Of a stretch of DNA of 64,000 nucleotides, positions 10,009-30,107 are shown piece after piece. A model generated the notes under the pieces. That model was not told the origin of the DNA. It saw nothing but the letters and a program-made list of their open reading frames with translations, and made no database searches. The stretch lies in the IMG/VR virus record IMGVR_UViG_3300017705_000602; one strand, given 5' to 3'. The stretch comes from a virus (taxonomy: Duplodnaviria > Heunggongvirae > Uroviricota > Caudoviricetes). Positions within the stretch are counted from its first letter, which is position 1. Every line of letters begins with the position of its first letter. The translations under genes and the position numbers were made by a program.

Positions 10009-10026
10009 AAACACAAGGATTACAAC

Positions 10027-11160: not shown

Positions 11161-11170
11161 GGAAATAAAC

Positions 11171-12375: not shown

Positions 12376-12382
12376 TTTTTAT

Positions 12383-12457: not shown

Positions 12458-12467
12458 AAGGATACAC

Positions 12468-12773: not shown

Positions 12774-12800
12774 ATACATATATAACCATGAGGAAAAAAT

Positions 12801-13079
12801 ATGTTTTGTAAGAATTGTGCAACAGAAATAAGCGACCGAGCAAGGTCATGCCCTAAATGCGGACATCCAGTTTGCGAAGAAGGTGCCAAGTCAAAAGTTG
12901 CTTTTGTTATATTGGCGCTACTAGTAGGCGGCTTTGGCATTCACCGTATGTATATCGGTGATTGGTTGCTTGGTATTATATACCTTGTTTTTTGTTGGAC
13001 ATTTATTCCAGCTTTAGTTGCGTTAATAGAAGCTATAGTTATCGGATTTAGAAAAGACGATCCACGCTTCGAATATTAA
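12801..13079 (+). CDS. zinc-ribbon + TM2-domain membrane protein
   Basis: N-terminal CxxC..CxxC ribbon (CKNC..CPKC) followed by two hydrophobic helices with G..G.HRMYIGD pattern typical of TM2 domain. Confidence 0.6.
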   Translation: MFCKNCATEISDRARSCPKCGHPVCEEGAKSKVAFVILALLVGGFGIHRMYIGDWLLGIIYLVFCWTFIPALVALIEAIVIGFRKDDPRFEY

Positions 13080-13084
13080 ATAAT

Positions 13085-13170
13085 GCGGATGTGGTGAAAT
13101 GGGAGACACGCCAGGTTTAGGCCCTGGTGCTAGAAATAGCGTGAGAGTTCGAATCTCTCCATCCGTACCA
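13085..13170 (+). tRNA. tRNA-Leu (anticodon TAG), class II
   Basis: anticodon stem ccagg/cctgg perfect, loop ttTAGgc, long variable arm, T-loop ttcgaat, acceptor gcggatg/catccgt, CCA. Confidence 0.75.
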
Positions 13171-13177
13171 TTTTATA

Positions 13178-13774
13178 CTAGGCCCTTTTTATAATTATTG
13201 CTTGACGACCCATGAACACATTAAGATGTTCATTGTGAATCATGCAAAAGCGGTTTACTGCTTTATAAACACCGGGCCAGTTTTCTTCACTGTAATCATC
13301 GAAATATAAAACTCCTCCTTTCTTTATTTTAGGATACCATTGGTTTATATTTGATTTAGTTTGATCGTAAGTGTGTCCTGCATCGATGTAGATAAAGTCA
13401 ACACTTTCGTCTTCGAACGTCATTTCTTCAACTGCAAGCGGAAGCACAGCTTTTACAAGATGCAGATTTTTTACATCTTGTAAATTTTCTCGTACAGTTT
13501 CCACGCAGTATATTTGATCCGTATCGGCATTATGTAAAAGTGAGTCTTGTTGAAAACTAGCAAGCGTTCTTGGATTACACGGATCACCGAACCAATCGTA
13601 ACAGTACAGATGAACAGAATCTTTTTTATTCATGCCAAGTGCATACGCACTTCTGCCTGCAAACGTACCGAGTTCTACTATGGTGCCATTTTCGGGCACT
13701 TGCTTTGCATATTTTGCTAAGTTTACGAGTGAGCAAGTATTTCCCCAACCGCATATATTTTCATTTATGATCAT
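13178..13774 (-). CDS. class I SAM-dependent methyltransferase (Methyltransf_24 / TylF-MycF-like O-methyltransferase family)
   Basis: minus-strand ORF; SAM-binding motif I IVELGTFAGRSA and motif FIYIDAGHTY...KGGVLYFDDY typical of TylF-type sugar O-methyltransferases. Confidence 0.65.
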   Translation of the reverse strand: MIINENICGWGNTCSLVNLAKYAKQVPENGTIVELGTFAGRSAYALGMNKKDSVHLYCYDWFGDPCNPRTLASFQQDSLLHNADTDQIYCVETVRENLQDVKNLHLVKAVLPLAVEEMTFEDESVDFIYIDAGHTYDQTKSNINQWYPKIKKGGVLYFDDYSEENWPGVYKAVNRFCMIHNEHLNVFMGRQAIIIKRA

Positions 13775-13853
13775 AGCATTATTTATCGGGTACTACACCT
13801 CACTGTGATAAATATACGAAGCATATCGTTTAGGTCGGCAATATAGGAAAACA

Positions 13854-14447
13854 ATGTTAACTACAATTTTGTCAACGCCAAGAACAGGCAGTTCGACTTT
13901 TAGCAACGAAGTAGGTTTAAGTTGGTTTCCTTCTTGCCATCCAAACAAGAATAACCGAGAGTATTTTAATTTTTTACATTGCGACACACCTGAACAAGTG
14001 ACCGAATATTGCGATCGCTATATTGGGTTACTTGAAGAGAAAGTATTAAAAGACGACCAGGATATAGTAATCAAGATACTGATATCCCATCTAGAACATC
14101 AGCCACACATACTGGATCGTGTGTTAGCAATTAGCAGTAAAATTTATCACACTGTTCGTTACAACTACCAAGATCATTTAAAAAGTTATACATCATCAAG
14201 ATTGTCTGGCGAATGGGGAGCTTCTCGCAAGCGTGAGCAGATATCGGTGTGCAACAACACAGTGTCGTTATTCCATACGCACCTTACAGCTCAACTAAAA
14301 ATGCATTCGGATCTTTATCATTTGGTCGGCGGCGACCTTGTTGTACTTGAAGAAAGGACACAAAACAGATATCCGCAAGTACCAGTATTCAATAACAATA
14401 TTATCTGGCCGTCATTCGATACAGAGGCACAGTTTAAAAAACGATAA
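13854..14447 (+). CDS. sulfotransferase-like protein (tentative)
   Basis: N-terminal P-loop-like LSTPRTGSSTF resembling the 5'-PSB PAPS-binding motif; AGGAAAACAATG RBS; divergent from the methyltransferase gene. Confidence 0.4.
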   Translation: MLTTILSTPRTGSSTFSNEVGLSWFPSCHPNKNNREYFNFLHCDTPEQVTEYCDRYIGLLEEKVLKDDQDIVIKILISHLEHQPHILDRVLAISSKIYHTVRYNYQDHLKSYTSSRLSGEWGASRKREQISVCNNTVSLFHTHLTAQLKMHSDLYHLVGGDLVVLEERTQNRYPQVPVFNNNIIWPSFDTEAQFKKR

Positions 14448-14470
14448 ATAATGGTAGTATTCCAAATCAC

Positions 14471-14547
14471 GGTTGTGTAGTTCAGTCTGGTAGAACAGGA
14501 GACTCATATTCTCTATGTCGCAGGTTCAAATCCTGCCTCAACCACCA
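14471..14547 (+). tRNA. tRNA with CAT anticodon, copy 3
   Basis: D-arm gttc agtctggta gaac, anticodon stem ggaga/tctct, loop ctCATat, T-arm gcagg ttcaaat cctgc, CCA. Confidence 0.65.
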
Positions 14548-14919: not shown

Positions 14920-15654
14920 ATGAAATTTAAAAACATTTTGTTGGGCACAGTAATAGCACTTGGCTTTTCGTCAGTTGCTAATGCGGGCCTAATAACAACA
15001 ATAGATGACTTTTCCGATGACCAAGGTCCGCTAACTGTTATGGCAGGCGGTATGGACTGGAGCTCAGTACTCGGTGACATGATTGGCGGCGAACGTGATT
15101 TAATGATCACAAACATTGTCGATGATAATAACAGAGGGACAACTATCGAAATTACAAACGATAAGTTCTTCTTTAGTGCCGGTTCGGGTGCCGAGTCAAT
15201 GTTTACTATGCAATGGGACGGCATTGATAACTCAATGGACGTTAACACAACTGGGCTAGGCGGAATCAACTTTTTTGAATCTGGCAACTCGGTAGTTTCG
15301 TTTGTTACTGCAATCGTTGAGTCCGACTTAAATGCTTGGTTCGACATCACGTTTTGGTCTGGTGCTAACGGCACTGCTGAAACAGTAGAACTACCAATTC
15401 CAGGTGTTGCATTCCCAGGTCGCGATGCGTTCTTTACCACTAACGAATTTGCAAATACCGATTTTACAAATATCGGCGCAATACAAGTTCGCGGTAACAT
15501 TATATCTCCTGACACTGGGTTAATGGTTCGGTCGTACGACTTGCAACTAGATTCAGTAACAGCAGTACCAGAGCCAGCAATGGCAAGTTTGCTTGGTTTA
15601 GGTCTTGCAGGAATTGCATTAGCAGGTCGCAGAAGAAAAAAACTAGTAGGATAA
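14920..15654 (+). CDS. secreted protein with C-terminal PEP-CTERM sorting signal
   Basis: signal peptide MKFKNILLGTVIALGFSSVANA; C-terminus VPEPAMASLLGLGLAGIALAGRRRKK = VPEP + hydrophobic helix + Arg/Lys cluster; AAGGA RBS. Confidence 0.7.
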   Translation: MKFKNILLGTVIALGFSSVANAGLITTIDDFSDDQGPLTVMAGGMDWSSVLGDMIGGERDLMITNIVDDNNRGTTIEITNDKFFFSAGSGAESMFTMQWDGIDNSMDVNTTGLGGINFFESGNSVVSFVTAIVESDLNAWFDITFWSGANGTAETVELPIPGVAFPGRDAFFTTNEFANTDFTNIGAIQVRGNIISPDTGLMVRSYDLQLDSVTAVPEPAMASLLGLGLAGIALAGRRRKKLVG

Positions 15655-16713: not shown

Positions 16714-17010
16714 ATGGACACACAAGACATCGCTCTTATGGCCGCTTTACAAAATAAATTCAAAGCAGGACATCTAAACCCTTTTACTAAATTCGTTTTA
16801 TCGGACGATAACACATATATTGTTTGCGGTGAATGCCACGGTGATCCACGATGGGCTGACGGCACTATTATTCGGACTTCAGTAGTGCTTTGTCATCACG
16901 AAGACGATGGTGTCATTGAAACCAGAAACAGTTATTACACTGTGGGCGAAGAAGTTCCGGACGACGACGAAAATAGAATTGAGCGTTTGCGTTTATTGTC
17001 AGTATTGTAA
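16714..17010 (+). CDS. hypothetical protein
   Basis: 98-aa ORF with AGGAATAATCATG context. Confidence 0.5.
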   Translation: MDTQDIALMAALQNKFKAGHLNPFTKFVLSDDNTYIVCGECHGDPRWADGTIIRTSVVLCHHEDDGVIETRNSYYTVGEEVPDDDENRIERLRLLSVL

Positions 17011-17390
17011 TGAAAGTGATTTATCGCCAGCTTGAAAGCATATACTCCACTAAACCGGATTCGCCGTGTTCGTTTGAACTATTGCTCGATGAAGGTTCGG
17101 AGTACTACTGCCAGCTAGTGTTAGCCCAAGGCGAAGATAACGTCACTTATACATTTAAAGGTAATGTGTCAATCGACATGACTGACTCGGTTATCAGTTT
17201 AAGCATACGCTACATGTTTTTTAAACCTATTTTCGAAGCATTGCTTGCAGGCGCACTAATTATCAGATACCACGGATACCAGATTATTCCTGATCTTAAA
17301 AGCATGACCTTGTCCGATCATCGAGACCATGGCAAGGATTATATATTCAATTGCGTTAAATTCAAAGCGGTGTTTGATTTCCAACAATAG
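17010..17390 (+). CDS. hypothetical protein
   Basis: 126-aa ORF, ATGA-overlap with upstream gene. Confidence 0.5.
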   Translation: MKVIYRQLESIYSTKPDSPCSFELLLDEGSEYYCQLVLAQGEDNVTYTFKGNVSIDMTDSVISLSIRYMFFKPIFEALLAGALIIRYHGYQIIPDLKSMTLSDHRDHGKDYIFNCVKFKAVFDFQQ

Positions 17391-17420
17391 ATAAATATGC
17401 TTATCAATCTGGAGATAAGC

Positions 17421-17801
17421 ATGTCTGTTCAAGTCCCTGCTATAAAAGCAATCATAATATTGCCATCGGAGCAAAACGAAAAAACACTTTATTTATTGCT
17501 TGAAGATTTCACTTTTAACGGCATCACTGTGCCAAAGGGCTTTGTGACCGACGGTGCCACAATTCCACGCATTTTTTGGCCGATTTTGCCGCCTGTAGAC
17601 AAGTATATGCCAGCGGCAATAGTACACGATTATATGCTAACACAGACAAGCAGACGCGAAGCAGACACCTTGTTTAACGACACGCTTAAACTGTTACGTA
17701 TCAAGCGATATCGTCGATGGTTAATGTATGGTGCAGTAAGGATTTTCGCACACTGGAAAAAACTTGTAACAAAGGTTAAAGGTCTGTATAGTAGCAAGTA
17801 A
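17421..17801 (+). CDS. DUF1353-family phage protein
   Basis: motif GFVTDGATIPRIFWPI and AAIVHDYM typical of DUF1353; start at ATG 17421 after GGAGATAAGC RBS. Confidence 0.6.
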   Translation: MSVQVPAIKAIIILPSEQNEKTLYLLLEDFTFNGITVPKGFVTDGATIPRIFWPILPPVDKYMPAAIVHDYMLTQTSRREADTLFNDTLKLLRIKRYRRWLMYGAVRIFAHWKKLVTKVKGLYSSK

Positions 17802-17814
17802 ACAACATAAAGGT

Positions 17815-18354
17815 TTGCTTATTATGAATTACAACAAAATCGTTTGCTTGGATTTAGAAATGACATGCTGGGACGATGGGCGTGAACCACGCACCGGCGA
17901 AATTATCGAAATAGGTCTAGCCAAGCTCGATCTTTCCACGCAAGAAATCGAAAAAACAGCTTCGTACATTGTTAAACCGGATCACGACGAAGTCAGTGAA
18001 TTCTGCACACAATTAACAGGGCATACCCAAAGCTCTGTGAATCGCCAAGGCCGCCCTTTTGCCGATGTGTTAGACACTGTAGTCAAGAACTTTGGCGGCG
18101 CCAGTGTAATATACGGCTCGTGGGGCAGAGATGACTTGGTCATGCGCAAAGAATGCGAAGCAAAAGGAATCGTTTATCCTTTTAAAGAATACATCAATCT
18201 AGCAACTGTATTTAGAATGCAACAGCGTGTCAAGAACAAACGTTTCGGGCACAAACGAGCAATGCAGATTGCAGGCTTGGAGTGGGAAGGACGCCAGCAT
18301 TCGGGTGTAGTAGATGCAACCAACCTAGCAAGATTAACAATGACCATGCTGTAA
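17815..18354 (+). CDS. DEDDh 3'-5' exonuclease (DnaQ/KapD-like)
   Basis: Exo I CLDLEMTCWDDG..EIIEIG (D-x-E), Exo III HSGVVDATNLARL (H-x4-D). Confidence 0.7.
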   Translation: MLIMNYNKIVCLDLEMTCWDDGREPRTGEIIEIGLAKLDLSTQEIEKTASYIVKPDHDEVSEFCTQLTGHTQSSVNRQGRPFADVLDTVVKNFGGASVIYGSWGRDDLVMRKECEAKGIVYPFKEYINLATVFRMQQRVKNKRFGHKRAMQIAGLEWEGRQHSGVVDATNLARLTMTML

Positions 18355-18355
18355 A

Positions 18356-18384
18356 GGTTGACAAAAGAAACGCATTCAGTTATA
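18356..18384 (+). promoter_or_regulatory. sigma70-type promoter TTGACA-17-TATAAT
   Basis: TTGACA 18356-18361, TATAAT 18379-18384. Confidence 0.55.
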
Positions 18385-18451
18385 ATGTAGACTACTAAAA
18401 CATAAATTAACAAAGGTACAAATTATGAAATAAACTAAAAATAAAGCAACT

Positions 18452-18808
18452 ATGCGTCTGTGGCGTTGGGGGTATGATCAGTTTAGAACTGGTTATAGAA
18501 TATTCACAATTGCTTATATAAAGGCGCTTAGATGGGATATATATTTGTTTCATTATCCCGAAGGGTCGTTTATACCTAAGCATAAAGATCCTTCAAAGTA
18601 CGGCAAGCATTACCGTTTTAATATAACTCTTAAACGACCTGAACAGGGCGGCGAGTTTATTTGCAACAATGTAGTGTTTAGATGGTGGAGATTTTGTTTG
18701 TTTAGAGCAGATGCAAATTACCACCGCGTAACTCGAATTGAAAAAGGTAGCCGTTGGATACTAAGCTTCGGTTTTACATTTAAGCATGACAAAAGTTCAA
18801 ATCGGTAA
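18452..18808 (+). CDS. small 2OG-Fe(II) oxygenase-like protein (paralog of 4609..4941)
   Basis: FIPKHKDPSKYGKHYRFNITLK HxD...H pattern shared with the 4609 paralog. Confidence 0.5.
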   Translation: MRLWRWGYDQFRTGYRIFTIAYIKALRWDIYLFHYPEGSFIPKHKDPSKYGKHYRFNITLKRPEQGGEFICNNVVFRWWRFCLFRADANYHRVTRIEKGSRWILSFGFTFKHDKSSNR

Positions 18809-19415
18809 TAACAGCATGGAACTTCCGGAAGGCCCAATTGGGCTTTCCTTTTCTACCGGTCTCGATAGTACAATTTTGTTGTACTTGCTTGCACAGCAAG
18901 TAAAGTCGGATTTACATTTGTTTACTATAAGTGTTCATTCTCGAGACCTACATGCAATCAAGTATTCGGCAGATATACTCAATTGGGTAATTGCACAAAC
19001 AGGTAAAACAAACATTTATCTGCATGTGACTGTAAAGCAAGATGCCGACGATGCATTAGGCAATGCAGGATTATACAAGACACCGGCTGAATATTTAGCA
19101 AGAGGCTTAATCAACTGCGTAGTAACTGGACATAACAGTTTACCGCCCGATGAAATCGATCTAGGATGGCCTGCAAAAGATTCGCACGATTACAAAATTC
19201 GAACTCCGCACGAACAGCGCGATATCGAATTTGCAACAAATTGGTTCAGTCCATTGACAAACTGCAACAAGAAACAGATTGCAGAACTTTTTTTAGAAAA
19301 TGGTGCATTAGCACTTGCGAAAAAGACTAATAGCTGTTATACTTCGTATAACGAAGAGCCATGTAAGCAGTGCTTTGCTTGTAAAGAAAAATTCTGGGGC
19401 TTTGGGTTTTACTAA
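18786..19415 (+). CDS. QueC-like PP-loop ATP pyrophosphatase, paralog 1 (degenerate PP-loop)
   Basis: N-terminal LSFSTGLDSTILLY (variant of SGGxDS) and C-terminal Zn-ribbon CYTSYNEEPCKQCFACKEKFWGFGF matching QueC TCY..GCGxCxxCxxRxxGF. Confidence 0.6.
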   Translation: MTKVQIGNNSMELPEGPIGLSFSTGLDSTILLYLLAQQVKSDLHLFTISVHSRDLHAIKYSADILNWVIAQTGKTNIYLHVTVKQDADDALGNAGLYKTPAEYLARGLINCVVTGHNSLPPDEIDLGWPAKDSHDYKIRTPHEQRDIEFATNWFSPLTNCNKKQIAELFLENGALALAKKTNSCYTSYNEEPCKQCFACKEKFWGFGFY

Positions 19416-19470
19416 GATAAATAGGTAGACAAATCTCACTTGATAAGTTACAATATGCACTTATTAGATA

Positions 19471-19668
19471 ATGAGTAAAAAAATGTCAGCACCAACAAAA
19501 GACGAAATGTTCAAGCGTTTATGCAATGCAGTCTTGTACTGGGATAAAATAGACCAGCAATTCTTTGCTGACAATCCGACATATTTTGTAACAGATATTA
19601 AAAACTTCGCTAATCAGATACGAGAGTATCAAACGGAGTACCCGGAATCACTCAACGAAGATAAATAA
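19471..19668 (+). CDS. small hypothetical protein
   Basis: 65-aa ORF. Confidence 0.4.
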   Translation: MSKKMSAPTKDEMFKRLCNAVLYWDKIDQQFFADNPTYFVTDIKNFANQIREYQTEYPESLNEDK

Positions 19669-19677
19669 ACATATAAT

Positions 19678-19808
19678 GCGGGCGTAGCTCAGTTGGATTA
19701 GAGCAACGGTTGTTTAAATGTCCCCTGTGCCGACACCGGTCTTCTAAACCGGAAGCATAAAAAACGTTGGGTTGGAGCTGGGAGGTTCGACTCCTCCAGG
19801 GGATGCCA
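19678..19808 (+). other. composite tRNA-like region upstream of HNH gene
   Basis: 19678-19710 = normal tRNA 5' part (acceptor gcgggcg, ta, D-arm gctc agttggatta gagc). Further on: perfect hairpin ccggt-ctTCTaa-accgg, perfect T-arm ggagg ttcgact cctcc, then aggggat-g-CCA (matches gtcccct at 19718). No canonical cloverleaf. Confidence 0.35.
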
Positions 19809-19864
19809 TTTTTAAAATCTGTGATAAATACTTTTACTTTAATGTTAGAAGTAGAAGAATTATC

Positions 19865-20563
19865 ATGGATTATAAGAAATTATACTATTCGATTATTGAA
19901 AAGCGACAAAGGTGTACACCTACTGGATATACTGAAAAACATCATATTGTCCCAAGGTCGTTAGGTGGTACTAATGACAAAGAAAATTTAGTTAAGTTAA
20001 CTGCTAGAGAGCATTTTCTTTGTCATTACTTGCTTGCAAAAATGTATAGCAAAGAATCAGTTGAATGGTATAAAATGAATCATGCATTTTTAATGATGAA
20101 GTCATCGTCGGCAACACAACAACGGTACTTTAATTCGAAACTGTATGAAAGCTTAAAAGTGAATATGTCGTTTGTGATGTCAGAATCACAAACGGGCAAC
20201 AGGAACTCTCAGTACGGAAAGCGATGGATACACTCTGTGGAGTTACAGAAATCTGTTAAAATTCCTAAGGATGATCCTTTACCTGACAACTGGAAAGAAG
20301 GCAGAAGAGTTAACTGGGATCTTGTTAAAACATGCCCACAATGCGGTACAGAGTTTTTAAAGAGTTTAAAGAAGTACTGTTCGGATGATTGCAAGGATAA
20401 GGCAACTAATCCTTTCCGTGGTAAAGAACAAGAGTTTTTAGAATTGTATGCGGAGTACCAGAGCATGAACAAAGCCTTAAAGGCAATGGGATACCCTGGT
20501 GCAATTAGTCATTATTACCGTTGGGCGAAATCGGTTATAGGTAATAACAATTCAAATGTTTGA
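19865..20563 (+). CDS. HNH homing endonuclease (paralog of 6967..7644)
   Basis: HHIVPRSLGGTNDKENLVKL..REHFLCH motif; C-terminal CPQCGT..C..C zinc finger. Confidence 0.8.
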   Translation: MDYKKLYYSIIEKRQRCTPTGYTEKHHIVPRSLGGTNDKENLVKLTAREHFLCHYLLAKMYSKESVEWYKMNHAFLMMKSSSATQQRYFNSKLYESLKVNMSFVMSESQTGNRNSQYGKRWIHSVELQKSVKIPKDDPLPDNWKEGRRVNWDLVKTCPQCGTEFLKSLKKYCSDDCKDKATNPFRGKEQEFLELYAEYQSMNKALKAMGYPGAISHYYRWAKSVIGNNNSNV

Positions 20564-20659
20564 TAAATAGTTTTAACAAAGAATTCGACCGACAAACGGA
20601 ATTTCGCTACCGAAAGTCAGGTGTCGAACCGCCCGGGGTAGTGCCCGGGCACTTACAAT

Positions 20660-20743
20660 GTGGGTGCGCATCGGCGAGCAAAGCGGTCTCCAAAACCGTG
20701 GCCTTAATCGGCCTTGAGGGTTCGAATCCTTCCACCCGCGCCA
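20660..20743 (+). tRNA. tRNA with CCA anticodon (Trp-type), atypical 84 nt with extra variable hairpin
   Basis: acceptor gtgggtg/cacccgc (G-U at pos 2), anticodon stem gcggt/accgt, loop ctCCAaa, variable hairpin ggcc-ttaatc-ggcc, T-arm gaggg ttcgaat ccttc, CCA; D-arm not canonical. Confidence 0.5.
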
Positions 20744-20749
20744 TTTTAT

Positions 20750-20825
20750 GCGTCTGTAGTTCAGTTGGTAGAACGTTGTCCTTCCAAGTCAAATGTCGCA
20801 GGTTCGAATCCTGTCAGACGCTCCA
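20750..20825 (+). tRNA. tRNA-Gly (anticodon TCC)
   Basis: acceptor gcgtctg/cagacgc perfect, D-arm gttc agttggta gaac, loop ctTCCaa (one internal stem mismatch), T-arm gcagg ttcgaat cctgt, CCA. Confidence 0.65.
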
Positions 20826-20917
20826 CTCTTTTTCCCACAAACCTCTTTACACTGCAATGTCATTCGTGTATTTTATTATTTAGAACTATAATAAATAAAC
20901 ATCTACAAGGATACAGT

Positions 20918-21325
20918 ATGTCTCTAATATCATGGACTGGCAATGTGAAAGTTTCATATCCAGACAAAGACGATGAACAACAAGCATTGCTATTGATGCT
21001 GACACGAGATCACTCAACTATTGAACTCTGGTCCGGTGAAATAAAAACACAAAAAGTTGTCGGTAGTAAACCAGTTAAGAGAGTTAAAGTACGCAAGCAA
21101 ATACACGGATCGAACGTGTTAATTGACATTGGTATCAAAGATTTTCATAACTATGCAACAAATGTATTCCGGCCGCATCCTTCGTCAGACACATTAATTT
21201 CAGTCAGTGCAAACGGCAAAATGAATTTCACGTTTGATCAGATAACTGAACTGAACTTGGTAATAAAAGAAGCGTACGGTGTGTACTTACAACAACTAAA
21301 GCAAGAGCAAGAAAATGATTCATAA
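20918..21325 (+). CDS. hypothetical protein
   Basis: ATG 20918 after AAGGAT; the track ORF start at 20714 lies inside tRNAs. Confidence 0.5.
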   Translation: MSLISWTGNVKVSYPDKDDEQQALLLMLTRDHSTIELWSGEIKTQKVVGSKPVKRVKVRKQIHGSNVLIDIGIKDFHNYATNVFRPHPSSDTLISVSANGKMNFTFDQITELNLVIKEAYGVYLQQLKQEQENDS

Positions 21326-21400
21326 CACAAACAGGCTACTCAAAATAATCTAGCCAGTGTAGAGTAATACTCAACTGCACTGGTATTATCAGGAGTAGTT

Positions 21401-21676
21401 ATGAAAGACAAACACCGTGCCGCTCGCAGAGCGCAACAGAAACGCATTATCAATAAAGCAAAACGCAAATATAAAGAATGGTGGTGGTTACAAGATCTTT
21501 CCAAAGAAGAGAATCATGTTGCATCGTCAAAGCTTGCAAACAATATGAAAAACTGTTCTTGTTGGATGTGTGGCAATCCACGCAAATTTAGTCAAGGACG
21601 AGCTGAGCTAACTCAACAAGAGTTACGATGCGAACGAAACTTAAGAGAAGGTTTAGATGAGTACTTCGAACAATAA
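21401..21676 (+). CDS. small basic Cys-containing protein
   Basis: Lys/Arg-rich N-terminus, CSCWMCGNPRK motif, AGGAG RBS. Confidence 0.5.
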   Translation: MKDKHRAARRAQQKRIINKAKRKYKEWWWLQDLSKEENHVASSKLANNMKNCSCWMCGNPRKFSQGRAELTQQELRCERNLREGLDEYFEQ

Positions 21677-22094
21677 AACACGCGACAACTATACACACGA
21701 ATTGCTCGATCATGTTCTTTACGGAGACAAAACACTATCCGAGATTAACTATCCGAATGTGACCATGCTCGACATTTCACTGGACATAAAGCGGTGCGAA
21801 GAAAGTGTTAGTTCAATGGGCTCGACATTAAAATTCGCATCGCCAGAAAACGTATGCGAAGAATGCGAAGAAGAACACGGTAACTTGATCAGTACCGTTG
21901 AAGATGCTCATTCGGATCTCGATTGTCACTTAGACACTATTATTACAAATTACCAGGCCTTGCTAGAACGCAATCAGCATTTAGAAAACATTATACATGA
22001 TTTAGTTGGCATGGCAGTCAAAGCAGTTGACGATGACGAAGTCGAACAGTTCGAAGAAAAATTAATACTTAGTAAACTAACCGGGGACAAATGA
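21657..22094 (+). CDS. hypothetical acidic protein
   Basis: 145-aa ORF; CEECEEEHG cluster. Confidence 0.5.
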   Translation: MSTSNNKTRDNYTHELLDHVLYGDKTLSEINYPNVTMLDISLDIKRCEESVSSMGSTLKFASPENVCEECEEEHGNLISTVEDAHSDLDCHLDTIITNYQALLERNQHLENIIHDLVGMAVKAVDDDEVEQFEEKLILSKLTGDK

Positions 22095-22342
22095 ATATCG
22101 TAGTAAAAGATAGCAGTTGGTTAGAGTCCGACATTGCAACATTGTACGGCGACCACAGTGGCAATGTTGAGCAAGTTACATTTGTCGACAACATGCCTAT
22201 TCCTAACTTGTTAGTTCAATTAGGTGTTTTTGCGTCAACATCAAAAGCAAGACAAGCAGGTCGCACAGGGGATATTCCTATCGGATGGTCCGAATACAAA
22301 GCAAGCAAAAAAAGGACGCTGTGGATATGGAACCCGAGATGA
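22091..22342 (+). CDS. hypothetical protein
   Basis: 83-aa ORF, ATGA overlap. Confidence 0.45.
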   Translation: MNIVVKDSSWLESDIATLYGDHSGNVEQVTFVDNMPIPNLLVQLGVFASTSKARQAGRTGDIPIGWSEYKASKKRTLWIWNPR

Positions 22343-23172
22343 AAACGATACCTGCAGACGAGCCGGTGCTGGTAGACGATATTGCAGTTATGACATACAA
22401 CGAATCTCGTGTTATGTCGCAGTATTGGCGTGCCGGTGAATCGTTATGGAAAGGTGTTATGCCATGTAACAGTTTCCAGCTTTTGCACGAAAACAGTATA
22501 CGCCAAACAGTATTCGGGTACTTTGTTAATCAGTGTTTTCGATGCTCAGTAGATGAAATTGCAGATGACGATATCACAGTTAACAATTATTGGCTTGAAA
22601 TACTACCTAAGATTTTGTGGTTATGCGAAGAATGGTTAACCAAAAAACAATTTGTTGAACCCCTTATGGCGCACTGGAATCCCCGAATACAAAAGAATGT
22701 GGTACATCCTGGAATGTCACGTGCAAGTGTGATGCATCTGTTTCCGCAAGGACTTACTGAATTCTCAGTGGTGTATTTTAATACCGGCGGTGGATACGAT
22801 CGCAACACAATGAACAAGCTGAGAAAAATTACAATAGACGATTTAATCGACGATGGCTGGAACACAATGACATTTGTCGCCGACCACGAATCTCTTATTC
22901 CGCATTTTTCAAAAAATATTGAAGCAAATGCAAACTACAAAAAAGATTACCATCGTAAGATAATCGAACGGCTATCGTCAATGTCGATAGAAACAAATAC
23001 TAAAGACACTATATTTACAGATCCGCTGTCAGCTTGGATTAAAAGAAACGGTAACGTACAAATTATTTTCACCGATCAAGAACCGGGTCCGTTAGCACAA
23101 GCAAGGGCATTGTTGTGTGCATTGTTAGGAAAAACGTACACAGACCATGAAGTAAAAGTATCATGCAATTAG
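22327..23172 (+). CDS. hypothetical protein
   Basis: 281-aa from ATG 22327 (AAGGACG RBS); immediately upstream of and overlapping the radical SAM gene. Confidence 0.5.
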   Translation: MEPEMKTIPADEPVLVDDIAVMTYNESRVMSQYWRAGESLWKGVMPCNSFQLLHENSIRQTVFGYFVNQCFRCSVDEIADDDITVNNYWLEILPKILWLCEEWLTKKQFVEPLMAHWNPRIQKNVVHPGMSRASVMHLFPQGLTEFSVVYFNTGGGYDRNTMNKLRKITIDDLIDDGWNTMTFVADHESLIPHFSKNIEANANYKKDYHRKIIERLSSMSIETNTKDTIFTDPLSAWIKRNGNVQIIFTDQEPGPLAQARALLCALLGKTYTDHEVKVSCN

Positions 23173-24128
23173 AGCGAGCAGTAATCGAAATTGCAGGAGG
23201 TTGCAATTACACCTGCGGAATGTGTCCTCAGAGCACAGGACGTGGCAAAGACTTTACCAAAAAGATGTCGGTATCTCATTTTGCTCAACTGCTCGACGAG
23301 ATTGTGGACAAGTATGGCAGCCCTCAGATTAATTTAGAAGGCTCAGGTGAGCCCACTATCAATCGAGATTTACCTTTGTATATACGAGAATGCACAAAGC
23401 GCAATCTTAAAAGTTTCATGTATACAAATGGTGCAAGGTTTAAAGGTAAACTGATGACCGATTCCATTGACGCCGGATTGTCTTTTGTTAGATTCAGTTG
23501 CATTGGCTACAATCGTGAGACTTATAAAAAATGGATGAGTCGTAACAACTTCGATTTGCTGATAAAAAATGCTATTGCTACACAGCAATACATACAGCAG
23601 ACTGAATCAAACTGCACAGTGAGCAGTTATCACCTAATACTAGACAACGCTAACATCGAGTACGAGATCGAGCAGTATCGGCGTAACTTTATTGAGCAAG
23701 TCGAATCAGTTGCGTATATCTGGAAAATGCACAACTGGAGCGGAAACATACAGCCAATATATCTGAGAGATACTTCCGATCGCAGAACATGCGGACGTCC
23801 ATTTGCACCCGAAATAACCATACGAGCCGGTGGCCTAGATGGTAAATACGGAGCAGTAACACCTTGTTGTCAAACTATGGGTCCACCGCACGAAGCCGAA
23901 AGCGTGCTAGGGCATACTTCTGTAAACACAATTGAAGAAATATTTACAGGAGAAAAATATGAGCAATTACGAAAAGCTCATAGACAACAAGACTTTGATA
24001 GTGTATCATATTGCAAAGATTGTGATTTCTTGTATGAAGACCCTGAGGTTCTAGTATGGAGTAACGATACTAGTGCAACAACAAATCACATGCTTGGAAC
24101 AAATTTTAATTTAGAAGATTACAAATAA
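23163..24128 (+). CDS. radical SAM enzyme with C-terminal SPASM/twitch-like Cys cluster
   Basis: N-terminal CNYTCGMC (Cx3Cx2C) in GGCNYTCGMCPQS; C-terminal Cys-rich region TCGRP...TPCCQTMG...SYCKDCDF. Confidence 0.7.
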   Translation: MQLERAVIEIAGGCNYTCGMCPQSTGRGKDFTKKMSVSHFAQLLDEIVDKYGSPQINLEGSGEPTINRDLPLYIRECTKRNLKSFMYTNGARFKGKLMTDSIDAGLSFVRFSCIGYNRETYKKWMSRNNFDLLIKNAIATQQYIQQTESNCTVSSYHLILDNANIEYEIEQYRRNFIEQVESVAYIWKMHNWSGNIQPIYLRDTSDRRTCGRPFAPEITIRAGGLDGKYGAVTPCCQTMGPPHEAESVLGHTSVNTIEEIFTGEKYEQLRKAHRQQDFDSVSYCKDCDFLYEDPEVLVWSNDTSATTNHMLGTNFNLEDYK

Positions 24129-24130
24129 AC

Positions 24131-24206
24131 GCACGGTTGTCTGAACGGTCTAGGTGCAGGATTGCAAATCCTTGTTATGCGAGTTCGAATCTCGCACCGT
24201 GCTCCA
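24131..24206 (+). tRNA. tRNA-Cys (anticodon GCA)
   Basis: acceptor gcacggt/accgtgc perfect, loop ttGCAaa, T-arm gcgag ttcgaat ctcgc, CCA. Confidence 0.65.
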
Positions 24207-24328
24207 AATCCCACTAATGGTAGTTATTTCTACCCAGTCCACTAGAGCTGATTGTAATGCTAGGAGGCCTAAACAGCCGAGGCGCCCAGTTTTACTGTTT
24301 GGTGCCTTTTTTTTGACTAAATATTCAC

Positions 24329-24994
24329 ATGCGAATTGAACTGCTCGGAAATGATTATATTGACATACCCAACGATACCAGTGTAGGTGTCGGATTTAGC
24401 GGTGGTGTTGATTCTACTTTGTTATTGTACATAATGTTGCTATACTCGCCGCATACTGTATTTCCGCTTACTATAACAGTTAACAATCGTTATCATCGCC
24501 ATAAGCAAGTGGCATCGGAAGTTCTTGAACTGTGCTGTAATGAAACAGGCAACCACGAAGTTATACATTCGGCAATACATTGCAACGATATTGATTTAGA
24601 AAATGGCACTAACCCTACTGCATTAAAACAAAACTGGTTTTTAAAGTCTGGCATGATCAGCACTTTGTTTCTTGGTACTAACCAGTTACCACCAGCTGGT
24701 CATATACACACTGAAGACTTTCGACACAATCACACTGACGAGTACTATCGGCGAGAACCCGGTGTGTTAAAAGCTACTAGTACCCACGGTGGTGCATTTC
24801 AGTTGCCACTCATTAATTATGACAAACGACAAATCTGCGAGCTGTACAGAAAGTTTGGTATATCAGATGAAATATACAAGCGCACATGGTCTTGCTCGAC
24901 TATACTCAGTGACAAGGATTGGAATGTAAATAGACATTGTGGGAAATGCGGCCCTTGTCACGAACGTATTTTTGGGTTTGGAAAAATAGAATAG
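24329..24994 (+). CDS. QueC-like 7-cyano-7-deazaguanine synthase family PP-loop ATPase, paralog 2
   Basis: canonical PP-loop VGFSGGVDSTLLLY; C-terminus WSCSTILSD..HCGKCGPCHERIFGFG matches QueC zinc motif. Confidence 0.7.
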   Translation: MRIELLGNDYIDIPNDTSVGVGFSGGVDSTLLLYIMLLYSPHTVFPLTITVNNRYHRHKQVASEVLELCCNETGNHEVIHSAIHCNDIDLENGTNPTALKQNWFLKSGMISTLFLGTNQLPPAGHIHTEDFRHNHTDEYYRREPGVLKATSTHGGAFQLPLINYDKRQICELYRKFGISDEIYKRTWSCSTILSDKDWNVNRHCGKCGPCHERIFGFGKIE

Positions 24995-25015
24995 CGGCCG
25001 AAGCCGCTATTTTTA
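24991..25015. terminator. bidirectional rho-independent terminator
   Basis: palindromic hairpin atagcggc-cgaa-gccgctat flanked by A-run upstream and T-run downstream. Confidence 0.65.
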
Positions 25016-25174
25016 TTTGATTTGAGTAGGTGGCTTAGGACCGCCAGGTCTTCCACCGCCGCCACCAGTTCCACCGTTGCCCGATGAACCCGAGTCTTTG
25101 TTTTTGATTTTGCGCCATATAAAATAGCCAAAACCGCCAACTACTACAACTAAAATTCCAATTTCTAATCCAGA
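25004..25174 (-). CDS. small Gly-rich membrane protein (56 aa), minus strand
   Basis: GGAGG 4 nt upstream of ATG on minus strand; one TM helix then Gly/Pro-rich tail; convergent on the bidirectional terminator. Confidence 0.3.
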
Positions 25175-25272
25175 CATAAAGCCTCCTTGTTATATACAAC
25201 TATTTATCCGGTTAATAATATGTATTGTAAACTACCATGGTTTTTCATGTAAATATAAGCAAGGAGGGAACC

Positions 25273-27466: not shown

Positions 27467-27634
27467 ATGAAAACCAAACGATACAAATGTATTATATGCG
27501 AATATATCTACGACGAATCAATCGGTATACCCGATGAGGGCATTCCGCCCGGCACAAGATTTGAAGATATTCCTGATGATTGGTCATGCCCGCTGTGCGG
27601 AATTGATAAAACTTACTTCGAGGAAATAACATGA
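27467..27634 (+). CDS. rubredoxin (55 aa)
   Basis: CxxC...CPxCG pairs in [40 protein letters not shown] with conserved Tyr/Asp/Trp aromatic core; ATGA-coupled to DHFR. Confidence 0.75.
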
Positions 27635-28143
27635 TCACGCTTATAGCCGCTATAGGTACCAATGGCGAAATCGGTAAAGATAACAGTTTACTTTGGGACA
27701 TACCCGAAGAAATGAAAGTGTTTATCAAGCACACTAAAGGTAAAACTGTGTTAATGGGCCGCAAGACATTCGAATCAATTGGTAGTAAGCCTTTGCCAAA
27801 TCGAACAAACATTGTGATTTCAAGAACTATGCCCGAAACCAACGGTGTACATGTTTATAGCAATATTGCAGATGCAATTAAAGATCACCCGGATGTAGTG
27901 GTCATGGGCGGAGAACAAATATACCGCGAGTGCTTACCGATAGCCGATCAAATGATCATATCGCATGTGTGCATGAGCTTTCCTGATGCCGATTCTCATT
28001 TTCCTGTATGTAATCAGTTGCTTGAAAAATCAGGTGAATTGTTGCACGATGGATCACCTTTTTTCTCAACGTATAAATATACGAAAGGAAAAGGAGAAAA
28101 CTCATGGGATTCAGATTCAGCAGACGAAGCGAAGAAAGACTAG
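27631..28143 (+). CDS. frd: dihydrofolate reductase
   Basis: [51 protein letters not shown] matches DHFR N-terminal blocks. Confidence 0.85.
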
Positions 28144-28502
28144 AAGGTGTTCACCCCGATCTAGTTGATGTTGCACATCGCGCAATCGAACTAACACCGT
28201 ATGACTTTGGTATTACCCAAGGCGTAAGAACAATAGAAGAACAAAGACGTTTTGTCGAAGAAGGCAAGTCTACTACAATGAACAGCAGGCACCTGATACA
28301 AGACGACGGATACAGCCATGCAATTGATATTGCAGTATATGTAGACGGTTCGATAACGTGGGAAGTGCCTTACTACAGAAAAGTTGTACAAGCATTTTTT
28401 ACTGCCGCTATTGAAAAGAATGTACAAATCAATTCGGGTGTGCTGTGGCGTACATTTGTCGACGGTCCGCACATTGAACTAAACTACAGGTACTATGAAT
28501 AA
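28104..28502 (+). CDS. peptidase M15-family L-alanyl-D-glutamate peptidase-type endolysin
   Basis: NSRHLIQDDGYSHAIDIAV (SxHxxGxAxD) and DGPHIEL second His motif. Confidence 0.65.
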   Translation: MGFRFSRRSEERLEGVHPDLVDVAHRAIELTPYDFGITQGVRTIEEQRRFVEEGKSTTMNSRHLIQDDGYSHAIDIAVYVDGSITWEVPYYRKVVQAFFTAAIEKNVQINSGVLWRTFVDGPHIELNYRYYE

Positions 28503-29103
28503 TATATACACCTGTAAGCTATTCGAGCCGCACGAAGCACAACGACTGTTAGACGATATTACATCGGAGTTTTACGGCAAATTTGTAAGATCAAGACTGT
28601 ACGACACATCTTCAGGCAACATGCATTTTAAAGAGATTGCCGATGCCCGAAGATCGTGGGAGCAAGTGTATCATAACCATACTCGGTTTGCTTGGATAAA
28701 AGCTAGACTAAACAATCATGTAAGAACTGCGCTTGATCAGTTCGGTCTTACTATGCCTGCTATACACTATCCGCAAGGTCTTCGATTTTTAAAATACGAC
28801 TCGGCAGAAACGGGCTTTCAGAATTGGCACACGGACAAGTCTAAACAATCGCGTATTCTTACTTGTGTTGTACAATTAACAGACCCTGACGAATATCAAG
28901 GTGCAAGACTCGAATTTCAATCTCCGATACTGTCGAGGCAGGTGCCAGTTCAGCAAGGCAGTTTAATTATATTTCCATCGGAGCAGATTCATCGTGTGTC
29001 TGAATGCATATCGGGAATTAGATACTCGTTGATTGTTTGGGCCGAGACAGAAGATACAGCATTACCTCCAGGGTACACAGATGACACTACTGAAAAGAAC
29101 TGA
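28495..29103 (+). CDS. 2OG-Fe(II) oxygenase, prolyl-4-hydroxylase-like
   Basis: HxD in FQNWHTDKS, distal His IHRVSE and 2OG-binding RYSL. Confidence 0.65.
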   Translation: MNNIYTCKLFEPHEAQRLLDDITSEFYGKFVRSRLYDTSSGNMHFKEIADARRSWEQVYHNHTRFAWIKARLNNHVRTALDQFGLTMPAIHYPQGLRFLKYDSAETGFQNWHTDKSKQSRILTCVVQLTDPDEYQGARLEFQSPILSRQVPVQQGSLIIFPSEQIHRVSECISGIRYSLIVWAETEDTALPPGYTDDTTEKN

Positions 29104-29611
29104 TTGGGAATTTCTAGCACCGCTTGCATTAAAAGAAGCAATGTCTATTATCAACAAGCACGGTGCGTTTAACGGGCAGATTGGACTTACACATCGTCCT
29201 GGAACACCCGAAGGCGATAAACTGATTGATGCAACAGGCTCGTTGTATGATTACGACTCGGGTCAGTTTGTTGCAAAGGAATCAGACTTTACTGAATTCA
29301 ATAGTGCTTTTGTAGGTACTTACTTGCACGAAATTTACAGCACTATCGGAAACATCGGTCGTATGAGAATCATGATCATGGATGGCCCTACTGCATACAC
29401 CATTCATCGCGATGTGACTACTCGTTACCACTTAGCTCTCAAAACCAATCCGTTTTGTTTTTTTGTGTTCCCTAACCAAAACGAACAAATACACATTCCG
29501 CAGGACAATAACATATACGAAGTTGACACACGAGAATATCACACGTTCTTGAATGGCACTAGAGCAACACGTATTCATTTAGTAATGGATAATTTGTTGT
29601 CGTATGAGTAA
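29081..29611 (+). CDS. cupin-type aspartyl/asparaginyl beta-hydroxylase-like protein
   Basis: TAYTIHRDVTTRYHLALKTNP resembles the AspH-family His-x-Asp...His core; start uncertain (29033 or 29081). Confidence 0.45.
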   Translation: MTLLKRTDWEFLAPLALKEAMSIINKHGAFNGQIGLTHRPGTPEGDKLIDATGSLYDYDSGQFVAKESDFTEFNSAFVGTYLHEIYSTIGNIGRMRIMIMDGPTAYTIHRDVTTRYHLALKTNPFCFFVFPNQNEQIHIPQDNNIYEVDTREYHTFLNGTRATRIHLVMDNLLSYE

Positions 29612-30107
29612 TATTATAATCACAGGACACACTTGCGGACTAGGAAAAGAGCTTGCATGTATATACCCTGACTACACTGGGTTTTCAAGAAGCAACGGAT
29701 ACGACATAAACAATCATGGTATTCGAACTAAGATAGTACAGGCAAGTGCCAACGCAGACATAATTTTTAACAATGCCCACGCAGGATTTAGTCAAATTGA
29801 ATTATTGTATCTTTTGTTTGATGCGTACAAACACACTAACAAAACGATAGTGAACATCTCGTCGATATCCCCGGAAACTTCAATACATCGTCCTCACAAG
29901 TATGCAGTTGAAAAGCTAGCACTTGATGCAGCCTCCAAGCAATTGGATATAAATTCAGACTGCCGCATAGTGCTAGTCAAACCAGGTTTGTTTATCAGTA
30001 ACAGAAGCAAAAACATTCCCGGAACTAAAATGCCCGCCAAGTACATTGCACAAGAAATCAAAGTTGCACTGTTACAGTCTGAGTCGAACATAATTAATAT
30101 ACAGTGA
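29604..30107 (+). CDS. short-chain dehydrogenase/reductase (SDR)-like protein
   Basis: IIITGHTCGLGKELA (TGxxxGxG) and YAVEK (YxxxK). Confidence 0.55.
   Translation: MSNIIITGHTCGLGKELACIYPDYTGFSRSNGYDINNHGIRTKIVQASANADIIFNNAHAGFSQIELLYLLFDAYKHTNKTIVNISSISPETSIHRPHKYAVEKLALDAASKQLDINSDCRIVLVKPGLFISNRSKNIPGTKMPAKYIAQEIKVALLQSESNIINIQ

Follow-up and report, generated by a model that had tools for sequence, protein, structure and literature searches.

What do two QueC-like enzymes and a radical SAM enzyme do together among the tRNA genes of a jumbo phage? The locus lies within a 64-kb stretch of DNA (the window) from the ~320-kb genome of a PA5oct-related marine jumbo phage and was initially annotated as a nucleic-acid hypermodification module, made up of two QueC-like PP-loop enzymes, a radical SAM/SPASM enzyme, a 2OG oxygenase, a DEDDh exonuclease and a DUF1353 protein. 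A check of the open reading frames recovered all of these genes on the + strand, each where it had been placed, with profile or motif support for the PP-loop, radical SAM, exonuclease and DUF1353 proteins. The features are as follows.

17397-17801, + strand: DUF1353 protein (PF07087, E 3.7e-24); position 17421 is an internal ATG of this ORF, which starts at 17397
17815-18354, + strand: DEDDh exonuclease (RNase_T E 1.3e-12, KapD-like E 4.5e-16)
18358-18386, + strand: promoter-like site with a perfect sigma-70 consensus (TTGACA-17-TATAAT)
18452-18808, + strand: 118-aa ORF, candidate minimal 2OG-Fe(II) oxygenase (H44-x-D46...H91)
18786-19415, + strand: PP-loop A, 209 aa (STGLDS, CyxxCxxC; family HMM E 1.4e-64)
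19862-20563: HNH homing endonuclease
20660-20825: tRNA-Trp and tRNA-Gly, within the module span
22327-23172, + strand: u295, 281 aa from the ATG at 22327 (295 aa from an alternative ATG at 22285)
23163-24128, + strand: radical SAM enzyme, 321 aa (C14x3C18x2C21; Radical_SAM E 5e-12, SPASM E 1.5e-8)
24131-24206, + strand: tRNA-Cys(GCA), between the radical SAM gene and PP-loop B
24329-24994, + strand: PP-loop B, 221 aa (SGGVDS, CxxCxxC)
24988-25013, + strand: intrinsic-terminator-like hairpin, an 11-bp stem followed by a T run

The initial annotation did not include u295, the HNH homing endonuclease or the ~3.7 kb of intervening sequence, occupied by unrelated small ORFs and tRNAs, between PP-loop A and the radical SAM gene.

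The two PP-loop proteins are paralogs, as had been proposed (27% identity, E 8e-20), and PP-loop A is an anciently diverged paralog of PP-loop B. The latter has the canonical SGGVDS loop and the former the variant STGLDS (S-[TA]-G-x-D-S also occurs in L082 and P0052), and both retain the C-terminal zinc motif (C184...C193xxC196xxC199 in A, C189...C204xxC207xxC210 in B). The assignment to the QueC family could be maintained only in part. QueC (7-cyano-7-deazaguanine synthase; PF06508 cluster 1, TIGR00364) has the fold, PP-loop and zinc motif in common with the phage family, and the nearest solved folds are those of QueC and Cap9, but the proteins score 40.3 and 29.7 bits with TIGR00364 against a cut-off of 150.3. 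The Pfam QueC model covers only the last 50-65 residues, and PADLOC returned a weak generic QueC match only (E 1.8e-4). The substrate signature of QueC consists of YxQxHxxE, VPxRN and YPDC (PMC13329287). These motifs are absent in PP-loop A, in PP-loop B and in all 34 of the 34 family members, which instead carry G-x-T-x-N-P-P, R-[DN]-P and T-R-S-C-E. To judge from these sequences, the family members are ATP pyrophosphatases with the QueC fold, PP-loop and zinc motif, in which the substrate-binding motifs of QueC have been replaced. Considering the missing motifs and the scores far below the TIGR00364 cut-off, synthesis of preQ0 by the PP-loop proteins appears unlikely.

The same absence deprives the proposed 7-deazapurine-related product of positive support, and given the lack of the substrate-binding residues of QueC the product is probably a modified molecule other than the known 7-deazaguanine bases. 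As the initial annotation had noted, the classical partner genes are not visible either: the FolE, QueD and TGT/DpdA motifs were found in no ORF of the 64-kb window of this ~320-kb genome, the sole ORF above 150 aa with a CX3CX2C radical SAM motif is not QueE-like, and no preQ1 riboswitch was found. Cap9 keeps the catalytic core of QueC (PMC13329287), whereas the phage PP-loop family lacks it. Cap9 and QatC are QueC-family protein deazaguanylation ligases of type IV CBASS and QatABCD, respectively; their partners CD-NTase, QatA, QatB and QatD are not present here, and unlike them the phage family is phage-encoded and does not occur in defence islands. The N-acetyl sugar amidotransferases PseA, LfnA and WbuX and the asparagine-synthetase-like sugar amidotransferases show a much weaker structural likeness to the phage family than QueC does, are larger (388 aa) and have no relationship to it at the sequence level.

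A search with the family profile (E<=1e-10) among 1.84 billion representatives recovered at least 688 clusters at 50% identity, nearly all of 200-240 aa. The family, with a typical length of ~210 aa, is almost entirely viral. In viral contigs 40 of the 73 distinct PP-loop genes (55%) have a radical-SAM-like gene as their immediate neighbour and 50 have one within three genes, while two to three PP-loop paralogs were present in 22 of 80 loci. PP-loop and radical SAM genes overlap in L070 and L012, and in L128 (12303-14795) a radical SAM domain with CX3CX2C is fused to a full PP-loop domain within one ORF of 830 aa. Neighbouring genes in many independent viral lineages, together with a natural fusion, thus bear out the association of PP-loop and radical SAM proteins. 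Two further proteins (P0081 and L096) are fusions of a MobA-like nucleotidyltransferase with the PP-loop protein. In a 710-kb Bdellovibrionia MAG contig, the PP-loop gene occurs with radical SAM and B12-radical-SAM genes, adjoining an APS kinase and a PAPS-reductase-family gene.

The radical SAM enzyme is, as had been claimed, not QueE-like and matches the Radical_SAM and SPASM profiles, but its conserved C-terminal cysteines number only five (C210, C235, C236, C284 and C287), which fits one auxiliary cluster of a twitch or abridged SPASM domain; the enzyme is of the twitch type. Among solved structures BtrN is the best match (E 1.8e-6), in a weak and partial alignment that spans the CX3CX2C core and the C-terminal Cys region, followed by BlsE (E 7e-4); these best matches act on sugars or nucleoside sugars. 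The NCBIfam matches (among them BlsE, DesII, WgkB, StsB and PqqE) all fall far below their cut-offs. There are 115 viral relatives, with 56-68% identity among the 80 that were kept. It may be added that SPASM/twitch radical SAM enzymes and QueC-like ligases such as Cap9 and QatC also act on proteins.

The start of the radical SAM gene overlaps the stop of u295 by 10 nt, and the two constitute a translationally coupled pair. The u295 ORF is conserved (281-295 aa) with the invariant motifs H-P-G-x-x-R, F-N-T and P-H, and its best, weak, fold matches are ParB/Srx proteins, a likeness that extends to nucleotide-using proteins of the ParB/sulfiredoxin fold such as sulfiredoxin, the SerK/SbnI serine kinases, ParB-N and DpdB/DndB. 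A u295-family gene flanks 11 of 31 distinct orthologous radical SAM genes, either upstream or downstream, and u295 is the most consistent partner of the enzyme; the pathways of BtrN-type twitch dehydrogenases, BlsE and DesII have no counterpart of u295. Only 2 of the 31 distinct lineages have a PP-loop gene within 5 kb of the orthologous radical SAM gene. The adjacency to PP-loop B is clade-specific, and this radical SAM subfamily rarely neighbours a PP-loop gene elsewhere.

The orthologs of the radical SAM enzyme reside in multi-radical-SAM clusters of T4-like marine phages, and the clusters on marine viral contigs hold homologs of the radical SAM enzyme and u295 as well as PP-loop family members. 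Radical SAM cassettes have been described in the host recognition cluster of pelagimyophages, together with glycosyltransferases and LPS genes (PMC7029224), and a T4-like genome with 12 radical SAM genes has been reported (PMC5332604). We infer, though not from placement between the VrlC and gp14 genes, that the marine clusters are these published pelagimyophage/cyanomyophage cassettes, the descriptions of which mention neither the PP-loop family nor u295 (PMC7029224, PMC5332604). The window genes very probably belong to this radical-SAM/PP-loop cassette system, which is common in uncultivated marine phages. The published cassettes occupy the host recognition cluster, whereas the set described here lies in the tRNA region of a jumbo phage and not in the tail-fibre region. 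It is also cut down in comparison with the large clusters, leaving a single radical SAM gene and a single u295 along with two PP-loop genes. The conserved cassette proteins c3, c4, c5 and c7, which have no match in Pfam, NCBIfam or PHROGs (nor, for c3 and c4, among PDB profiles), are all absent from the window, and the role of the reduced set may differ from that of the large clusters.

As a whole, the genes are best explained, with close to an even chance of being right, as a reduced radical-SAM/PP-loop cassette for the tailoring of a small molecule or sugar; as the substrate class, a nucleotide-activated sugar or some other small molecule is a tentative assignment, to be held below even odds. 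The nucleotidyltransferase fusions and the BtrN, BlsE and DesII matches hint in this direction, as do the neighbours of the u295-radical SAM pair, which in several contigs also occurs outside the multi-radical-SAM clusters: a carbamoyltransferase is found near the pair in both L169 and phage C48C1, joined in L169 by NAD-dependent sugar epimerases/dehydratases and in C48C1 by an annotated glycosyltransferase. Further hints are the glycosyltransferase and LPS genes alongside the published cassettes (PMC7029224) and the gene neighbourhood on the Bdellovibrionia contig. In such a pathway the radical SAM enzyme would abstract a hydrogen atom, by which the substrate is oxidised or rearranged, and the enzyme-like u295 may use a nucleotide to bind or phosphorylate the substrate or an intermediate. 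The PP-loop enzymes would then adenylate a carboxyl or carbonyl group that is replaced by nitrogen to give an amide, amidine or nitrile, in line with the general chemistry of QueC, Cap9 and the asparagine-synthetase-type clades. The product might decorate the virion or the surface of the infected cell, rather than being preQ0 in DNA or tRNA.

The initial reading, a novel modified base in the DNA or tRNAs of the phage for which the radical SAM enzyme replaces QueE and a QueC-like step follows, now seems improbable. The synthesis of preQ0 likewise involves a radical SAM enzyme and then QueC, and the ParB-like DpdB works in deazaguanine DNA modification, so that u295 could take the role of this ATPase and aid base insertion. 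The fold matches of u295 and PP-loop B agree with such a scheme, and so does the position of the genes among tRNAs, beside a DEDDh exonuclease and a 2OG-like ORF. The family-wide absence of the QueC motifs and the lack of partner genes within the 64-kb window speak against it, and the accompanying genes never occur with these families beyond close jumbo relatives. Three tRNAs (Trp, Gly and Cys) do lie within the span, but the setting looks incidental: homologous cassettes elsewhere occur without tRNAs. No feature links the genes to tRNA or DNA, and the tRNA-free cassettes, the two nucleotidyltransferase fusions and the glycosyltransferase and LPS surroundings (PMC7029224) lend such a target no support.

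Equally doubtful is a protein or peptide modification, with the radical SAM enzyme as the maturase of a phage or host protein and the QueC-fold enzymes joining a carboxylate to a protein amine or amidating a side chain, as Cap9/QatC do in protein deazaguanylation. In its favour, QatC and Cap9 are examples of a QueC scaffold that works on protein N-termini (PMC13329287), the maturases WgkB, StsB and PqqE are among the weak NCBIfam matches, and the variable region with the radical SAM cassettes also holds tail-fibre genes (PMC7029224). However, neither a precursor peptide nor a candidate gene for the substrate was found, the five auxiliary cysteines resemble the BtrN twitch rather than the seven-cysteine SPASM motif usual in peptide maturases, the substrate motifs of QueC/Cap9 are missing, and the fusions and sugar-enzyme neighbours suit a small-molecule pathway better. 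That the genes form no functional module but piled up as unrelated accessory genes in a hyperplastic tRNA/homing-endonuclease region is very unlikely, since, for all the mosaic of HNH gene, tRNAs and many small ORFs, the patchy PP-loop A and the mere clade synteny of DUF1353 and exonuclease, the u295 and radical SAM genes overlap and recur together in distant phages, more than half of the viral PP-loop genes adjoin radical SAM genes (with one fusion besides), and the order from u295 to PP-loop B is kept in relatives and ends at one terminator.

This order (u295, radical SAM gene, tRNA-Cys, PP-loop B), including the position of the tRNA-Cys, is conserved across jumbo relatives with a PP-loop B of 66-69% identity. 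The hairpin begins within the final bases of PP-loop B and ends the transcription unit; between 22285 and 24988 on the + strand the sole other terminator-like call is a weak 5-bp stem (24780-24795) inside PP-loop B.

DUF1353, the exonuclease and the 118-aa ORF co-occur with the module genes only in five loci from close jumbo-phage relatives and are absent from the 160 other radical SAM or PP-loop loci, so that they could not be upheld as module members; for DUF1353 and the exonuclease the association is one of clade synteny only. The case of the 118-aa ORF is uncertain. It has no Pfam or NCBIfam match, and the PADLOC '2OG' match (E 4.8e-6) weakly suggests a putative 2OG oxygenase, next to a match with phrog_13746 of unknown function (E 3e-38). 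The ORF overlaps the start of PP-loop A by 23 nt, and none of the five loci from jumbo relatives lacks it, not even those without PP-loop A. The promoter-like site upstream of these two genes matches the consensus at 12 of 12 positions, a call based on the consensus match only in a region where the total of such sites does not exceed the shuffled expectation. In the relatives L084-L086, PP-loop A and the HNH gene are both missing, and this lineage carries a second u295 paralog 3' of the radical SAM gene.

The genes of the window lie nearly throughout on the + strand, accompanied by 23 tRNA genes, and include RIIA/RIIB, a long tail sheath and a large terminase, the latter with 64% identity to its counterpart in the Pseudomonas jumbo phage PA5oct (287 kb). 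Exact or close matches to the encoded proteins were recovered from marine metagenome contigs of 320-335 kb. A megablast of 17000-25200 against the GenBank phages matched nothing. ORF calls, tRNA calls and family models across 17397-24994 confirmed the genes that had been listed in the initial annotation, which had overlooked two others, namely u295 (a protein weakly resembling the ParB/sulfiredoxin fold) and an HNH homing endonuclease. The order of the features within this span is as follows:

DUF1353 protein (PF07087, E 3.7e-24), at the start of 17397-24994
DEDDh exonuclease (RNase_T, E 1.3e-12; KapD-like)
18452-18808, + strand: 118-aa ORF with an HxD...H pattern (PADLOC '2OG', E 4.8e-6)
18786-19415, + strand: PP-loop A, 209 aa, with the loop STGLDS
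65-aa ORF
19862-20563, + strand: HNH homing endonuclease (phrog_655, E 2.7e-42), just 3' of PP-loop A
tRNA-Trp, then tRNA-Gly
four small ORFs
22285/22327-23172, + strand: u295, 281-295 aa
23163-24128, + strand: radical SAM enzyme, 321 aa
tRNA-Cys
24329-24994, + strand: PP-loop B, 221 aa, with the loop SGGVDS

PP-loop B is the next protein-coding gene 3' of the radical SAM gene and is followed by a strong terminator-like hairpin (24988-25013). A perfect sigma-70 consensus (18358-18386) lies 5' of the 118-aa ORF, whose 3' end shares 23 nt with the start of PP-loop A. The HxD...H pattern of the 118-aa ORF corresponds to H44-x-D46...H91, as in the iron-binding triad of 2OG-Fe(II) oxygenases, for which the ORF is a weak candidate; the PADLOC match is its sole model match, as searches of Pfam and NCBIfam returned nothing.

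PP-loop A and PP-loop B are paralogs (27% identity, E 8e-20) that possess the Rossmann-like fold and N-terminal phosphate-binding loop of the PP-loop ATP pyrophosphatases. As had been noted before, the loop is canonical in one of them (SGGVDS at residue 24 of B) and deviates in the other (STGLDS at residue 23 of A), and both carry the C-terminal zinc ribbon (C184...C193xxC196xxC199 in A and C189...C204xxC207xxC210 in B). Within the aligned family these elements are common, SGGxDS being found in 28 and CxxCxxCxE[RK] in 33 of the 34 members. The canonical QueC signature consists of LxSGGxDS, YxQxHxxE, VPxRN, YPDC and a Cys4 zinc motif (Libby et al., PMC13329287), of which A and B share no more than the PP-loop and the zinc motif. 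YxQxHxxE, VPxRN and YPDC are all absent from A, B and each of the 34 aligned members, and QueC residues from about 54 to 155 do not align to the family profile. Instead of the QueC substrate motifs, the family conserves G-x-T-x-N-P-P, R-[DN]-P, P-F-x-N-x-D-K and T-R-S-C-E, together with a C-terminal H-C-G-x-C-W-W-C-x-E-R-x-W-G-F-G. The TIGR00364 (QueC) scores of 40.3 bits (B) and 29.7 bits (A) miss the curated whole-protein cut-off of 150.3, the alignment being confined to the C-terminal 48-64 residues, and the Pfam QueC model covers just the final 50-65 residues. The designation 'QueC-like' thus holds for the fold, but a QueC function is not supported by the sequences.

Searched exhaustively with HMMER, 1.84 billion representative proteins yielded 1503 matches to the PP-loop family at E<=1e-3, of which 688 passed E<=1e-10. 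This puts the family at no fewer than 688 clusters at 50% identity; the 150 matches listed are, with few exceptions, 200-240 aa long. The family is confined almost wholly to viral sequences. At least 186 stretches in IMG/VR matched it, and these loci were recovered by a family-alignment query only, PP-loop B as a single sequence finding nothing. It is essentially absent from cultured phages and sequenced cellular genomes: a tblastn of PP-loop A, PP-loop B and two typical members gave no match in 50,697 GenBank phage records, and a scan of 185,579 species genomes with the single pattern HCGxCWWC returned five loci, all in MAGs, at least one of them on a 710-kb Bdellovibrionia contig. On that contig (L174, 6450-14131) the rare cellular family member occurs with radical SAM and B12-binding radical SAM genes, adjoining an APS kinase and a PAPS-reductase-family gene, which is suggestive of a sulfation-linked tailoring cluster.

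To specify the genomic associations of the family, the ORFs of the 80 best IMG/VR loci were labelled with HMMs built for this analysis. After dereplication at 70% identity 73 distinct PP-loop genes remained, of which 40 (55%) had a radical-SAM-like gene as direct neighbour and 50 (68%) had one within three genes. In 22 of the 80 loci, two or three paralogous PP-loop genes were interspersed among the radical SAM genes. The association extends to a natural fusion of 830 aa (L128, 12303-14795), which combines CX3CX2C at residue 115 with a complete PP-loop domain at residues 591-825 (E 4e-36). In two other proteins, L096 5962-7332 (456 aa) and P0081 (437 aa), the PP-loop domain is fused to a MobA-like nucleotidyltransferase. 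Considering these multi-paralog loci and fusions, two diverged paralogs near a radical SAM enzyme are the usual state of the family. Tandem duplication occurs as well, in a 498-aa double PP-loop protein (P0073).

The radical SAM enzyme of the window has the cluster motif C14-N-Y-T-C18-G-M-C21 and a core that matches PF04055 (E 5e-12, 46.8 bits versus a cut-off of 29.5). The earlier reading of a SPASM-like cysteine cluster in an enzyme other than QueE was borne out: the C-terminal auxiliary domain matches PF13186 (SPASM; E 1.5e-8, 35.2 bits versus 21.5), and no QueE model appeared among the best 25 of 35 NCBIfam matches, the top ones being W_rSAM_matur, spiro-SPASM, MoaA and TrsS, all of which score far below their cut-offs. 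Five auxiliary cysteines (C210, C235, C236, C284 and C287) are each kept in at least 95% of 41 ortholog sequences; since the SPASM motif has seven, this number would fit a twitch or abridged SPASM domain with one cluster. Among solved structures BtrN is the best match (E 1.8e-6, with alignment over both domains), and a tetraether synthase and BlsE rank next.

The 115 relatives of this enzyme found in IMG/VR (56-68% identity among the 80 kept) mostly sit in long clusters of paralogous radical SAM genes, a number of them matching the N-terminal-twitch family NF033640 (N_Twi_rSAM). A representative is L016 4814-16560, which resembles L004, L007, L038 and others in that some 12 kb, on marine viral contigs of T4-type appearance, hold at least five radical SAM paralogs, some of them NF033640. 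Such clusters also contain four conserved proteins (c3, c4, c5 and c7) with no counterpart in Pfam, NCBIfam or PHROGs, and PDB profile searches with c3 and c4 gave no significant match. In pelagimyophages, radical SAM cassettes have been described from the hypervariable 'host recognition cluster', where glycosyltransferases and LPS genes also lie (PMC7029224), and a T4-like genome was reported to carry 12 radical SAM genes (PMC5332604). We infer that these multi-radical-SAM clusters, in which homologs of the window enzyme lie, are the published marine-phage cassettes. Two window homologs of other neighbour proteins, c9 (57336-57767, just 3' of the tail-tube gene) and c22 (36141-36764), were set aside as module parts in view of their distance from the module.

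The overlooked u295 has no match in Pfam, NCBIfam or PHROGs. Members of its family, the remote c12 and c44 included, lie upstream or downstream of the orthologous radical SAM gene in 11 of 31 distinct cases. These two clusters (hhalign probabilities of 87% and 72%, respectively) were the only remote relatives found, c3, c4, c5, c7, c8, c9, c11 and c22 being unrelated to u295 by hhalign. In phage C48C1, the genes next to the radical SAM homolog showed no detectable relatedness to u295 or PP-loop B. The two-gene pair of u295 and radical SAM enzyme was also encountered outside the multi-radical-SAM clusters in several contigs, in one case near NAD-dependent sugar epimerases/dehydratases and a carbamoyltransferase.

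The local arrangement is shared by jumbo relatives of two lineages, with 66-69% identity in PP-loop B: DUF1353, exonuclease and 118-aa ORF are followed further on by u295, the radical SAM gene, tRNA-Cys and PP-loop B. Both PP-loop A and the HNH gene are present in L082 and L083 and missing in L084-L086, and the lineage without PP-loop A has a second u295 paralog 3' of the radical SAM gene. Outside the jumbo clade, none of 160 loci with radical SAM or PP-loop genes contained DUF1353, the exonuclease or the 118-aa ORF, and their proposed membership of the module is accordingly not supported.

With respect to function, the radical SAM enzyme would carry out the oxidation or rearrangement of a substrate, u295 may use a nucleotide on that same substrate, and the PP-loop enzymes would adenylate a carboxyl or carbonyl group and subsequently install nitrogen. 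Our tentative preference for the substrate is a nucleotide-activated sugar or another small molecule, on the basis of the nucleotidyltransferase fusions, the action of the closest radical SAM relatives on sugars, the neighbourhoods of sugar enzymes and LPS genes and the Bdellovibrionia locus adjoining PAPS-pathway genes.

A nucleic acid is a rather unlikely target. A dense tRNA island (2913-14547) holds 19 tRNA genes, including three tRNA-Met(CAT) and the Asp, Asn and His tRNAs, which are queuosine-target anticodon families. The tRNA surroundings of the module appear incidental, as the same families elsewhere are not near tRNAs. The earlier remark that FolE, QueD, QueE and DpdA are not visible was corroborated within the 64-kb window (of a genome of about 320 kb) by a motif scan. 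CEHH, CxxxHGH and DSGG[FYW], which we take to be diagnostic of FolE, QueD and TGT, respectively, occur in no ORF of the window, leaving these components of a Dpd cluster without a candidate there, and CX3CX2C occurs in a single ORF of more than 150 aa, which is not QueE-like. Similarly, the Pfam-annotated genes of the syntenic relatives include no Dpd/preQ0-pathway families, and Rfam detected tRNAs alone and no riboswitch. Neither a lysidine synthase nor a TGT was identified within the window.

A protein as target is about equally improbable. More doubtful still is a previously unrecognised, virus-specific pathway in which a radical-SAM-made carboxylated base or sugar would be turned into an amide or nitrile by a non-QueC PP-loop enzyme and put into phage DNA, tRNA or virion protein, aided by a ParB-like nucleotide-using partner; this would parallel the QueE-QueC-DpdB logic with another product. 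A TilS-like lysidine synthase, which weak matches to the TilS N-domain and the presence of three tRNA-Met(CAT) genes had brought into consideration, was rejected on account of scores far below cut-off, the QueC-type C-terminus and the tRNA-free contexts of the family elsewhere.

The QueC scaffold has been repurposed several times, as in QatC, Cap9 and LarE (PMC13329287); the same survey does not describe the phage PP-loop family and nowhere mentions radical SAM enzymes. The fold and the general chemistry are already known. As far as we found, there is no earlier description of the subfamily, of its partnership with radical SAM enzymes and u295 or of its occurrence almost exclusively in uncultivated marine phages. 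The diversity of the scaffold thereby gains a large, almost solely viral branch, which is linked to the radical SAM cassettes responsible for the hypervariability of marine T4-like phage genomes. The minimal four-gene version in the window is more tractable for finding the chemistry than clusters of up to 12 radical SAM genes. Should the product be a surface glycan or a decoration of the virion, it would be relevant to how abundant ocean phages recognise their hosts and exclude superinfection; a nucleic-acid base as product would mean a new hypermodification pathway.

Several further features of the window were observed. ARAGORN called the tRNA-Trp(CCA) at 20660-20743 (+) with 84 nt and the anticodon at position 31. 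At gathering score it was missed by the Rfam tRNA model, yet the same call is kept in L082 and L085; the tRNA may be atypical or interrupted. Downstream of the module, at 27467-30107 (+), lies a run of redox/oxygenase genes that includes rubredoxin, DHFR, a 2OG-FeII_Oxy_3 protein (28495-29103, E 1.9e-11), an Asp/Arg-hydroxylase-like protein (29033-29611) and a faint short-chain-dehydrogenase-like ORF; syntenic relatives have a glutaredoxin and a Band_7 protein farther downstream. Finally, 14920-15654 (+) encodes a 244-aa secreted protein that ends in a PEP-CTERM sorting motif, VPEPAMASLLGLGLAGIALAGRRRKK (PF07589, 24.5 bits versus a cut-off of 20.7), and the next ORF, 15751/15889-16701 (+), has a comparable end, in which VPAP is followed by a hydrophobic stretch and basic residues. 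These tails suggest that the two phage proteins are exosortase substrates, which hints at an exosortase system in the host.
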